A stretch of DNA of 64,000 bases from a plasmid. The position numbers were made by a program. This document shows, one piece after another, positions 37,901-40,900 of the stretch (the stretch's first letter is position 1; each line of letters starts with the position of its first letter). The stretch lies in assembly GCF_056746865.1 (NCBI RefSeq), contig NZ_JBWKMP010000004.1. The stretch is one strand, 5' to 3'.

Positions 37901-40900
37901 GGAGCTGTATTTTCCCGCTCTCGCTGGGCAGTATCAAAGTCAGTCAGGGTAAGGTCCCCGACACGGCGAACCCGTCGATGCCCATTCAGATTTGTCCGGC
38001 ACCGCCGCCGCTGTTCAGGCGTATCGGGCTGGCCATTGGTTACTGGGAGCCGATGGCGCTGACGGATGTCACCCGGTCACCGGGATGCATGGTGAACCTG
38101 GGCTTCAGCCTGCCAGCTTTTGGTAAAACGGCACAGGGAACGGCGAAAAAGGATGAGAAGCAGGTGAACGGGGCGTTCTATCACGTTCACTGGTACAAAT
38201 ACCCGCTGACGTACTGGCTGAACATCATCACATCGCTGGGCTGTCTGGAAGGTGGTGACCTGGATATCGCTTATCTTTCTGAAATTGACCCCACCTGGAC
38301 GGACAGCAGCCTGACCACCATTCTCAATCCGGAAGCTGTCATCTTTGCCAATCCGATAGCACAGGGGGCCTGTGCAGCAGATGCCATTGCCAGCGCCTTT
38401 AATATGCCTCTCGATGTTCTGTTCTGGTGTGCCGGTTCGCAGGGCAGCATGTACCCGTTCAATGGCTGGGTGAGTAATGAGTCCAGTCCGTTGCAGTCCT
38501 CCCTGCTGGTCAGTGAACGCATGGCGTTCAAGCTGCACCGTCAGGGCATGATTATGGAAACCATCGGGAAAAATAACGCCGTCTGTAATGAATATCCGTC
38601 CCCAATCCTGCCCAAAGAACGCTGGCGTTATCAGATGGTGAATATGTATCCGGACAGCGGACAGTGCCACCCGTTCGGGCGCAGTGTGATGCGCTGGGAG
38701 ACGGGAAAAAATCCGCCCAACACAAAGAAAAACTTCGGCTACCTGATGTGGCGTAAACGTAACTGTGTATTTCTGTAACTTAAACAAAAAGAGGAATATT
38801 TTAAATGGAAAAGAAATTAAGCAGTAAATACATTCATATGTATATGAGTATATCCCGAGTGTTCATTCGTTTGACAGGAAATGTATTAAAACTGTTTCCT
38901 TTTGCTATGGTGATATGCCCTGTGGTGTGGTTTTATCTTTGCCCTGAACATATTATCTCAGACATTGTTAACGACTGGCAGGATGCAGATACACTGGAAA
39001 AAATACTGCTTGTCAAACTGTATCTGAAGACGGTTCTTATTCTGACAGTGGTAAGCGTTGTTGTCTTGTATCTTTCGTCAGATAAGTTTATGCCTGTTAA
39101 ACGCAGGAAATGAGTCTGGTGGTTCTCATAAATATAACTGTGTGTGCATGTGTACAATATAAGTAAAGGTGCGTTATGGGATTTTTCTCGTTTTTACGAA
39201 AGATAAGTAATAAAGAAAAAGGGGTGGTTATCTATGAGAAGCAGTGGTTCTCACTGCTGGAAAAGGTGAGTGCTTTTGATGAGGTCAGACAATGGGCTGA
39301 AAGTAATGGTGGAGCATATTATCCTCTGCTGGAGTGTCGTCGGCTTACAGACAGTGAAAATGTCAGGAAATCAGAGGATATACTGAACCGACTGGAGTTT
39401 ATTGACAGAAGATTTCGGGAATTCATCAGCATTATGTCTGAACATATTAATAATGATAAAACTAAATCCATGTGGGAGAGGGAATTGTCTGAATATCCAC
39501 CGGAAAAAATATACCAGGTCCGGAGAGAGGGAGAACATCTGTCATTAAAAAATTATGGTGATGATATTACTCTGAACAGAGATACCGCCGTGGCTACGGT
39601 GCAGATTACTGTCAGCAGAAAATGCATTACTCAGGAAGAAATGGATGAATTATATGCATTGTCTGAGAGACTGAAAGAAAAGTGCGCCGGTAATTAAATT
39701 ATATCACTGTGCCGGGAGATGATATGAGCCGGAAAATATTTGAACTTTTTGCCCTGACAGCAGGACTGTTTATTTCTGCCCACGCTTCGGAAAATGTGAA
39801 TACACCCGAAAACCGCCAGTTCCTGAAGCAGCAGGAAACACTGAGTCAGCAGTTACGTGAAAAACCGGACACACAGCTGCAGGCATGGGCAGAACAGCAG
39901 GTCAGGGCGAATCCCCTTCAGCATTCCGATAACCAGTTTCTCGATGAACTGGTCCGTAAACAGCAGGCTGCTCAGAAGGATAAACCACAGCAGGGTGCCG
40001 TGTATTTTGTGTCGTTTTCCATACCCGAAGAGGGGCTGAAACGGATGCTGGGAGAAACCCGGCACTACGGTATTCCGGCCACACTGCGGGGTATGGTGAA
40101 CAACGACCTGAAAGCCACGGCTGAAGCAGTGCTGTCTCTGGTGAAAGACGGTGCGACCGATGGTGTTCAGATTGACCCGACGCTGTTTTCACAGTACGGC
40201 ATTCGCAGCGTGCCGGCTCTGGTGGTGTTCTGCAGCCAGGGGCACGACATCATCCGGGGAAATCTGCGCGTCAGACAGGCGCTGGAGAAAGTGGCCGCCA
40301 CAGGAGACTGCCGGCAGGTGGCTCAGGGACTGCTGGACGGCACCGGGGATAAGTCGCAATGAGTTTACCTGCAGGCTATTACCGGATTGACCCGGACATC
40401 CGTGCACTGGTGGCCGCGATGAACGTTCACGGATTTCGTACATATGCGTCCTGTCAGGGGCATGGTTTCCCTGTTACAAAGCTGCCGCCTTATATCGCCT
40501 TTGCCTGTCCGGTAAAAATGGCTGCCCTTCTGGAGCAGCGACTGCGGCAGGATGCTGAATCAGCAATACCACGTCTGACATGGGGATGGTCGGTGAAGGG
40601 GACTTTTAACAGTGATTTTCAGCTTTGCTTCCGGCTTCAGCCTGAAGGCCCTCATCACTGGTATCACCGGTACTGTCGCCGCTCACTGCGTGCAGACTTC
40701 AGGACGCTGGTCCGATTAGTGAATCCGTAAATCTGTTCCCGTTAAGGAGGCATTGATGGCGCTGACAAAGAAACAGCGGGAAAAACTGCGTATGAAATTC
40801 GGTGGCCGTTGTGCGTACTGCGGCTGTGAACTGCCGGAGAAAGGATGGCATGCCGACCATGTTCAGGCGGTGCTCCGCAAGTCAGAGCAGTGCATGAAGG

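Follow-up and report, generated by a model that had tools for sequence, protein, structure and literature searches.

The junction between traU and trbC in the transfer (tra) operon of F-like plasmids is a polymorphic cargo slot driven by recombination, and the two-gene insert found there in a stretch of plasmid DNA from contig NZ_JBWKMP010000004.1 (assembly GCF_056746865.1) is one common version of its contents. That stretch, 64,000 nucleotides (nt) long, is termed 'the window' here, and its positions serve as coordinates throughout. The insert encodes a small, predicted membrane protein (protein A, of family A) and a soluble protein (protein B, of family B); in some other plasmids a P-loop protein of a third family (C) stands in the place of A. 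A variable cargo hotspot between conserved transfer genes, loaded with small and dispensable cargo, is a kind of feature that is already known; the slot itself, its three cargo families, a natural A::B fusion and the relatives of these families in other plasmid groups appear to be undescribed. As to what the cargo does, the reading that is favored here, at a probability of roughly 0.4, is that A and B would form an accessory barrier or modulator at the membrane of the donor cell, of the exclusion or protection type, housed in this slot.

The region falls midway along an F-type transfer operon, which is read from the + strand of a pHN7A8-like plasmid, and the 1.1 kilobases (kb) around the insert are 100% identical in many plasmids, including pHN7A8 itself (NC_019073), where proteins A and B are annotated as WP_000412447.1 and WP_015059014.1, each a 'hypothetical protein'. 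The gene order in the window is traC, trbI, traW, traU, gene A, gene B, trbC, an open reading frame (ORF) of 123 residues, an HNH endonuclease gene and traN, with the slot and its borders laid out as follows:

37786-38778, + strand: traU, the upstream slot boundary (330-residue ORF; TraU WP_000830838.1 of pHN7A8, identical to R100 TraU)
38779-38804, + strand: spacer with a GAGG ribosome-binding site for gene A (from the sequence)
38805-39113, + strand: gene A, 102-residue predicted inner-membrane hairpin protein (from the ORF, hydropathy, charge and family alignment)
39114-39175, + strand: 62-nt spacer with an AAGGTG ribosome-binding site for gene B (from the sequence)
39176-39697, + strand: gene B, 173-residue soluble protein, mildly acidic, predicted to be mostly helical and cytoplasmic (from the ORF and its composition)
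39698-39723, + strand: spacer before trbC (from comparison of junctions)
39724-40362, + strand: trbC, the downstream slot boundary (RefSeq start)

The segment that differs from F thus comprises 945 base pairs (bp; 38779-39723), slightly more than the 38779-39708 that had been assigned to it in an earlier reading made from the DNA alone (the 'sequence-only reading'); the trbC start used by RefSeq is the ATG equivalent to position 39724, not the GTG at 39709. That reading had described an AT-richer two-gene insert and had stated that trbC directly follows traU in F, and both statements are borne out: the gap in F is 8 nt, and the windowed G+C fraction (GC) is 0.36-0.41 over positions 38650-39700 versus 0.52-0.60 on either side. 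Genes A and B have a GC of 0.369 and 0.398 and a GC at third codon positions (GC3) of 0.398 and 0.397, respectively, versus 0.548 and 0.662 in traU and 0.556 and 0.615 in trbC. The comparison with the flanking tra genes (GC3 of 0.40 versus 0.62-0.66) therefore places the difference at the level of codons, and not of amino-acid composition alone. Shine-Dalgarno-like motifs precede both starts (GAGG at 10 nt for gene A and AAGGTG at 4 nt for gene B), no promoter-like or terminator-like site was found on the + strand within the insert, and an Rfam scan of the region returned no RNA family. Its position, and its want of a promoter-like or terminator-like site of its own, fit the earlier proposal that the insert is co-transcribed with the tra operon, in which case it would be read through from the tra promoter. 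Because the exact sequences of proteins A and B each occur on at least 1000 contigs, and because the ratio of non-synonymous to synonymous divergence (dN/dS) between alleles is 0.2-0.5, both are real genes rather than chance ORFs.

The states of the junction were surveyed with a megablast query composed of the end of traU, the insert and the start of trbC, which matched 4,563 records in PLSDB; slot states were read from evenly spaced samples of the resulting ranking, and then from annotation. The whole cassette is present in 490 of the 4,563 records (391 of the 490 at an identity of at least 99%), and DNA of the insert is matched in 336 of 5,426 complete Escherichia coli genomes, 240 of them with at least 80% coverage (4-6%), with 363 of 365 such places located on plasmids. 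Among the sampled records in which both flanks were matched (n = 47), approximately 38% have an empty junction (18/47), 30% have the R100-type content and 13% the window cassette, with the rest divided among other types. At least seven states of the junction were found, all of them beginning directly after the traU stop codon:

empty junction of 8 nt: F type
single 101-residue gene (family A): R100 type
single 102-residue gene (family A) overlapping the trbC start: pSLT type
111-residue gene and 150-residue gene (A and B): loci L005 and L011
153-residue P-loop protein and 150-residue gene (C and B): loci L003 and L004
102 and 173 residues (A and B): window cassette
103-residue gene and 259-residue gene (A and an A::B fusion): locus L006
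180-residue and 156- or 193-residue membrane proteins, then a 100-residue family A gene before trbC: Salmonella F-like plasmids

In all slot types, homology among plasmids stops exactly at the traU stop codon, and the spacer and ribosome-binding site that follow are different in each alternative cassette. The 3' end of the cassette (GGTAATTAAATT...) is conserved between the cassettes that carry 173-residue and 150-residue forms of B, and the 5' end of trbC differs between empty (F-type) and filled plasmids. In F-like plasmids of Edwardsiella, Citrobacter and Enterobacter the junction is empty as well (10-16 nt), and since the empty state is thus common to F and to distant F-like plasmids it looks ancestral, with the occupied state looking like a colonization within the E. 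coli and Salmonella group. The description of the insert as an accessory addition relative to F therefore stands. It is neither rare nor private to the window, and homologues of A occupy the same position in R100 and pSLT.

Two further observations concern individual plasmids. In the Salmonella plasmids (loci L013-L015) the slot, at about 3037-5303, holds up to three genes, the last being the family A gene that overlaps trbC; the 180-residue and 156- or 193-residue proteins that precede it have a soluble N-terminal part and C-terminal transmembrane (TM) segments, and are unrelated to A, B and C. In a Klebsiella plasmid (NZ_CP031720.1, 41870-44636) the same cassette as in the window is split by IS903B, so that the two pieces span 2,767 rather than 1,701 bp, creating a natural knock-out.

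Comparison of the window with R100 reveals a pattern of recombination. TraU is 100% identical in protein, with a synonymous divergence (dS) of 0.057, whereas the proteins of gene A are approximately 46% identical, with a saturated dS of 1.2; B is not found in R100, trbC is 85% identical in protein with a dS of 0.57, the 123-residue ORF and the HNH gene are not found in R100, and traN is again 96% identical in DNA. From this pattern it follows that the DNA between the traU stop and the traN start forms a recombinant patch of other ancestry. The window trbC is 99% identical to that of the L006 plasmid, itself the carrier of a related cassette, so that the trbC allele co-varies with slot content. 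The alleles of family A are themselves mosaic: one variant joins the N-terminus of the window protein to a body that is divergent, and a second variant is built the other way round. The cargo of every slot type is set apart from its flanks by composition (GC of 0.34-0.44 in all slot genes versus 0.53-0.56), as it is by divergence.

The second interval within this patch, between trbC and traN, also behaves as a cargo slot (window 40359-41178), with the 123-residue ORF, which has no match in Pfam, followed by a 141-residue HNH endonuclease that belongs to phrog_2118 (E 2.4e-58). Neither occurs in F or R100, in which trbC and traN are directly adjacent; elsewhere, locus L011 combines the 123-residue ORF with a gap, and only the HNH gene is present in Salmonella plasmids, either full-length or internally deleted. 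Further along, trbA of R100 is missing from the window between traF and traQ (44041-44166), and no DNA homology to R100 extends across the traS region (49752-50373); the window therefore differs from R100 at several small loci of the tra operon, and not just between traU and trbC. Two other genes of the operon serve as landmarks:

34150-36777, + strand: traC (ORF)
41175-43025, + strand: traN (from the gene order in the window)

Both A and B are under purifying selection that is relaxed relative to the neighboring genes, with dN/dS values of 0.24-0.54 for A and 0.21-0.42 for B versus 0.04 for traU and 0.15 for trbC. Truncated forms of B are frequent while A stays intact, and these truncations, together with the IS903B insertion described above, indicate that the module is dispensable for survival of the plasmid. 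Such truncations and the natural insertion, together with a dN/dS of about 0.5 in close comparisons and the lack of the cassette in many successful plasmids, are also what would be expected if A and B were functionless passengers or decaying remnants, kept by their linkage to the tra genes. That explanation is very unlikely, because the ORFs are intact in thousands of plasmids, dN/dS is 0.24-0.42 (well below 1) at dS values above 1, motifs are common to the F-like and IncX relatives described below, and the reading frame of the fusion form has been kept.

Protein A (102 residues, isoelectric point (pI) 9.5) has hydrophobic segments at about residues 28-47 and 67-91, in agreement with the two TM helices ascribed to it by the sequence-only reading. 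The N-terminal and C-terminal tails each carry a net charge of +4 and the 19-residue connecting loop one of -5, from which the positive-inside rule predicts that both termini are cytoplasmic and that the acidic loop is periplasmic. In an alignment of the family, P32, W58 and L74 are invariant; W58 is a tryptophan in the acidic loop, and this loop is the best-conserved part of the protein, common even to the IncX relatives. The window protein is 45-46% identical to the R100-type protein, 41% to the 111-residue protein and 43% to the pSLT protein.

Family A is found by tblastn in 2,024 PLSDB plasmids, R100 and pSLT among them, and a profile search places it in at least 175 clusters at the 90% level, all from Enterobacteriaceae. 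Its members are named in databases only as 'hypothetical protein' or, generically, as 'conjugative transfer protein', and A occurs without B in R100, in pSLT and in roughly 1,200-1,500 plasmids. No family match was found for A in Pfam, NCBIfam, PADLOC or PHROG; matches to hairpin-type proteins (VMA21, E 0.03; PspG, E 0.39) are weak and were treated as effects of composition, and no similarity was found that would make A a paralogue of TrbA, TrbE or TraQ. A scan of genome contigs with the family A profile returned four loci (L024-L027), all on short contigs or contigs of metagenome-assembled genomes (MAGs), which are filed under MAGs of Lachnospiraceae, Clostridiales and Oxalobacter and under an assembly of Acinetobacter; mis-binning or contamination with contigs of enterobacterial plasmids is the most likely reason.

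Protein B (173 residues, pI 5.6) contains 31 acidic versus 28 basic residues and shows no hydrophobic or TM segment and no signal peptide; the intact ORF and its charge agree with the earlier description of a charged, soluble protein. Its predicted structure is largely helical, including a short beta region and a helix at the C-terminus, and an AlphaFold2 model built from a 13-sequence alignment was too poor to use (mean pLDDT 50.6). The family consists of two subfamilies only, of 173 and 150 residues, with 32% identity between them (E 1e-17); when 1.8 billion representative proteins were searched exhaustively with phmmer, only these two and some spurious repeat proteins were returned, and tblastn finds the family in 802 PLSDB plasmids. 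As with A, no family match was found in Pfam, NCBIfam, PADLOC or PHROG. The C-terminus of B was considered as a ribbon-helix-helix DNA-binding motif and rejected, because the strand is followed by a single helix only and no family was matched. In an IncFII(K)-type plasmid of Klebsiella pneumoniae (NZ_CP089384.1, locus L010), the traU-trbC junction is a 275-nt unannotated spacer (3378-3652) with a 58-residue ORF, the C-terminal half of which weakly resembles the conserved C-terminus of B (6.0 bits, a score reached by 1 in 1000 shuffles); this ORF may be what is left of a B gene, or a miniature form of it. Between traW and traU, that plasmid also carries an inserted gene of 133 residues.

The association of A with B is most direct in the L006-type cassette, where B is joined in frame to a second copy of A, whose TM2 runs straight into the N-terminus of B to give a protein of 259 residues. 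Several distinct variants of the fusion exist, one exact sequence is found on 73 contigs, and two of the alleles are separated by 27 substitutions (9 synonymous, 18 non-synonymous) with the frame intact and a dN/dS of about 0.5. In the cassette with 111- and 150-residue products, the genes for A and B overlap by 8 nt. Because the C-terminus of A is predicted to be inside, the fusion would put B on the cytoplasmic face of the membrane, in agreement with the lack of an export signal in B, and A and B may interact physically. An AlphaFold2 model of A and B, concatenated on the pattern of the natural fusion, was unusable (pLDDT 45.9). The pairing is evidently not obligate: R100 and pSLT have A but no B, and B can also come after a soluble P-loop protein.

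Searches for a function were extended in several directions. Profiles of A and B found no match among sequences in the Protein Data Bank (PDB), and no paralogue or tra/trb relative among the other products of the window or those of F, R100, Klebsiella, IncX and IncI2 loci, so that the earlier statement that neither protein corresponds to a known tra/trb product is upheld. No homologue was found by tblastn in 50,697 phage records, nor in chromosomal defense islands, and neither protein has a sequence match to any phage protein. In the literature and databases searched, no described function, and no paper that names or tests A or B, was found. The expectation that the insert represents something undescribed accordingly holds for its function and literature, and less so for its occurrence, the identical cassette being common (about 480 PLSDB plasmids) and one of at least seven slot contents. 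The sequences of A and B are present in public databases thousands of times, and family A is conserved in the reference plasmids R100 and pSLT, with no known function attached to it there. An IncX3 deletion study (PMC11880322) was considered as indirect evidence and set aside, as no IncX3 copy of an A-like gene is evident by tblastn.

The sequence-only reading had listed toxin-antitoxin and anti-defense functions among its suggestions, and neither found support. A toxin-antitoxin or abortive-infection module would consist of A as a membrane toxin and B as its cytoplasmic regulator, acting in plasmid stabilization or in the killing of infected cells. A two-gene cassette with a small membrane protein has the appropriate form, and one that is AT-rich, mobile and variable resembles many defense and addiction modules; the small P-loop NTPase that accompanies B in other cassettes, moreover, weakly matches an anti-phage ATPase domain, although at E 1.2e-5 it falls well short of the cut-off. 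This explanation is nevertheless very doubtful. Neither A nor B matches a toxin or antitoxin family in NCBIfam, Pfam or PADLOC, or a PADLOC model of anti-phage defense, and homologues are lacking in phages, prophages and chromosomal defense islands; the cassette has no promoter-like site of its own; and, given that each protein occurs without the other, neither acts like an obligate antidote. B, in addition, is often truncated next to an intact A, with no evident loss of the plasmid.

Anti-defense or establishment factors, which would help the plasmid to survive in a new recipient, might be expressed together with transfer genes, as A and B would be, and the mildly acidic character of B could be taken to point the same way. 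Known plasmid anti-defense genes cluster in the leading region. The genes described here are found midway along the tra operon, with traU and trbC on either side, in the part of the plasmid that enters the recipient last; they match no known anti-defense family and no PADLOC model, A is a predicted integral membrane protein, and the pI of B (5.6) is unlike that of a DNA mimic, all of which makes such a role extremely unlikely. The clustering of anti-defense genes in the leading region has been discussed elsewhere (bioRxiv 10.1101/2024.10.15.618418).

Relatives of the cargo are found in other conjugation systems. IncX5-type plasmids (MPF_T) encode an A-like protein of 114-141 residues, whose identity to the R100 protein is 41% across 78 residues (E 2.5e-18; range of matches 1e-13 to 1e-18) and which shares with family A the motif FYF-x-PE-x-[IL][IL]-SD-[IV][IV]-N-x-W ... 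[RK][LI][YF]L[KE]. Its gene directly follows those for virB11, a virD4-type coupling protein, a Cag12-family lipoprotein and TrbM, and precedes a thermonuclease gene and topB; by tblastn, close relatives of this form (at least 60% identity) occur in only about 50 PLSDB plasmids, the F-like set apart. The 153-residue P-loop protein defines family C, which is unrelated to A and B and has only weak AAA-type matches. It is found by tblastn in 741 PLSDB plasmids, about 278 of them F-like and 463, with relatives that are 43% identical, of about 60 kb; in the one IncI2 plasmid examined (pWH09-3, locus L019, 4947-5477), a 176-residue relative lies between the coupling-protein gene and pilN, after virD4. 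The presence of relatives of A and C beside type IV secretion system (T4SS) genes of different plasmid groups indicates that these cargo families are not general island genes.

With regard to the neighbors of these relatives, the thermonuclease (SNase) gene of IncX5-type plasmids directly follows the A-like gene with a 3-4-nt overlap (L012, 3279-3740; L016, 5423-5893), and a thermonuclease-family gene is also found in R100, near finO (L009, 26670-27131). In many of the approximately 60-kb records, relatives of family C are annotated as 'sigma 54-interacting transcriptional regulator', which is probably a mis-annotation based on the P-loop only.

The near-confinement of these families to transfer loci, where they hold a fixed place in F-like plasmids and lie beside virD4 and TrbM in the IncX5 type, also speaks for the main rival explanation, in which A (with B) would assist the conjugative machine as an accessory or assembly factor that is not essential to it, such as a membrane chaperone or a factor that tunes the pilus or T4SS in particular hosts. 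The loop of A, conserved across plasmid types, suggests a conserved partner; the cargo is tightly spaced with trbC, or overlaps it (as the pSLT-type A overlaps the trbC start), in a read-through organization; the trbC allele co-varies with the cassette; and the dispensable small Trb proteins of F offer a comparable case. Against it stand the empty slot in F, in about 40% of the sample (18/47 with both flanks) and in distant F-like plasmids; the lack of similarity to Tra/Trb proteins of the window, F, R100 and Klebsiella plasmids; a foreign, AT-rich composition and a swapping of cassettes that are unusual for parts of a machine; and the interchangeability of partners (B, the P-loop protein or none). 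Because many transfer-proficient relatives do without the module, it is not part of the DNA-transfer machine, nor does it belong, by family match or by consistent presence in transfer-proficient F-like plasmids, to the F-type Tra/Trb families. An assembly-factor role is on balance unlikely, as is the wider accessory-factor explanation.

Exclusion or protection on the donor side is the best fit to alleles that are divergent yet old, to the exchange of cassettes, and to a small product that is predicted to sit in the inner membrane and would be expressed along with the pilus. The slot lies exactly between the traU stop and the trbC start in F-like plasmids of the E. coli and Salmonella type, with the insert as one of its alleles. 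In such a scheme, A and B would be made from the long tra transcript, at the same time as the pilus and T4SS; A would form an inner-membrane hairpin of about 100 residues, and B would act at or near it, on the inner membrane face. The module might then block, for example, the entry of DNA through the mating channel or of pilus-dependent phage. Cassettes pass between plasmids by homologous recombination in their conserved flanks, and divergent alleles persist over long periods. A broader version, in which families A and B and the P-loop partner would constitute a previously unrecognized, conjugation-linked membrane module of F-like, IncX and IncI2 plasmids that protects the piliated donor, is quite unlikely; in this version a phage genome or foreign DNA would be blocked at the inner membrane via the periplasmic loop of A, with B or the ATPase on the cytoplasmic side.

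Several points weigh against the donor-side barrier. No family match, structure or experiment in the searches of A and B made here supports a specific activity. The loop of A is its most conserved part, down to the IncX relatives, which suggests a conserved partner and not a variable specificity determinant of the TraS type, and F-like plasmids already carry TraS and TraT for exclusion. The occurrence of B with a soluble P-loop protein in place of A implies that B need not be tethered to the membrane; many plasmids have a truncated B, and a dN/dS near 0.5 is fairly relaxed. Finally, the deep divergence of alleles could be mere hitch-hiking beside the recombining trbC-traN region.

The practical interest of the slot derives from its carriers. 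Plasmids of the pHN7A8 type (IncFII) spread CTX-M, fosA3, rmtB and KPC genes in E. coli and Klebsiella, and A and B travel with them in hundreds of sequenced isolates, where they are presumably read when the transfer operon is on. The slot holds a small, closed set of unannotated protein families that also appear beside T4SS genes in other plasmid groups. Should the module be found to affect exclusion, sensitivity to pilus-dependent phage or the fitness of donors, competition among F-like plasmids would gain a further layer; should it have no phenotype, the cassette would still be a useful neutral marker of recombination in the tra operon. There is a minority chance that the cassette hides a new, conjugation-linked protective system.

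Among the closest known systems are the hotspots of mobile elements. The SXT/R391 integrative conjugative elements carry variable hotspots (HS1-HS5) in a conserved backbone. Like these, and like the hyper-variability hotspots of plasmids and phages (the general concept of plasmid hotspots is treated in bioRxiv 10.1101/2024.10.15.618418), the traU-trbC junction is a fixed site between conserved transfer genes that is either empty or filled with unrelated foreign cargo, and, as in the SXT/R391-type hotspots, the cargo is exchanged by recombination in the flanks. It differs from such hotspots in that its cargo consists of only one to three small genes of no recognizable defense, resistance or toxin family, lies inside a single operon with no room for regulation of its own, and belongs to families restricted to conjugation loci. 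The dispensable small genes of the F tra operon (among them trbA, trbE, trbJ, trbF, trbH, artA and traR) resemble A and B in being small, often membrane-associated, embedded in the operon, variable and not needed for transfer, and such non-essential genes are reported to be poorly conserved (PMC5102898); A and B, however, have no sequence relationship to them, are far more AT-rich than the operon, and belong to a set of cassettes that replace one another, where each of the F genes is simply there or missing.

At the level of the protein, a comparison that bears on the barrier proposed here is with entry-exclusion proteins (TraS of F-like plasmids, Eex of SXT and TrbK of IncP). TraS is a small inner-membrane exclusion protein with divergent alleles. 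A shares with this group its origin as a small inner-membrane product of the transfer region, and the possession of highly divergent alleles in near-identical plasmids; it is unlike them in having no homology to exclusion families, or to the window's own TraS region, in having an exposed loop that is the most conserved rather than the most variable part, and in coming from a plasmid in which traS and traT are present anyway. From the small phage proteins with two TM segments that act in superinfection exclusion, such as Imm of T4, A is set apart by the lack of any sequence match to a phage protein. In size and hairpin form, however, the Imm-like proteins are similar to A, and they illustrate a plausible means of blocking entry at the inner membrane.

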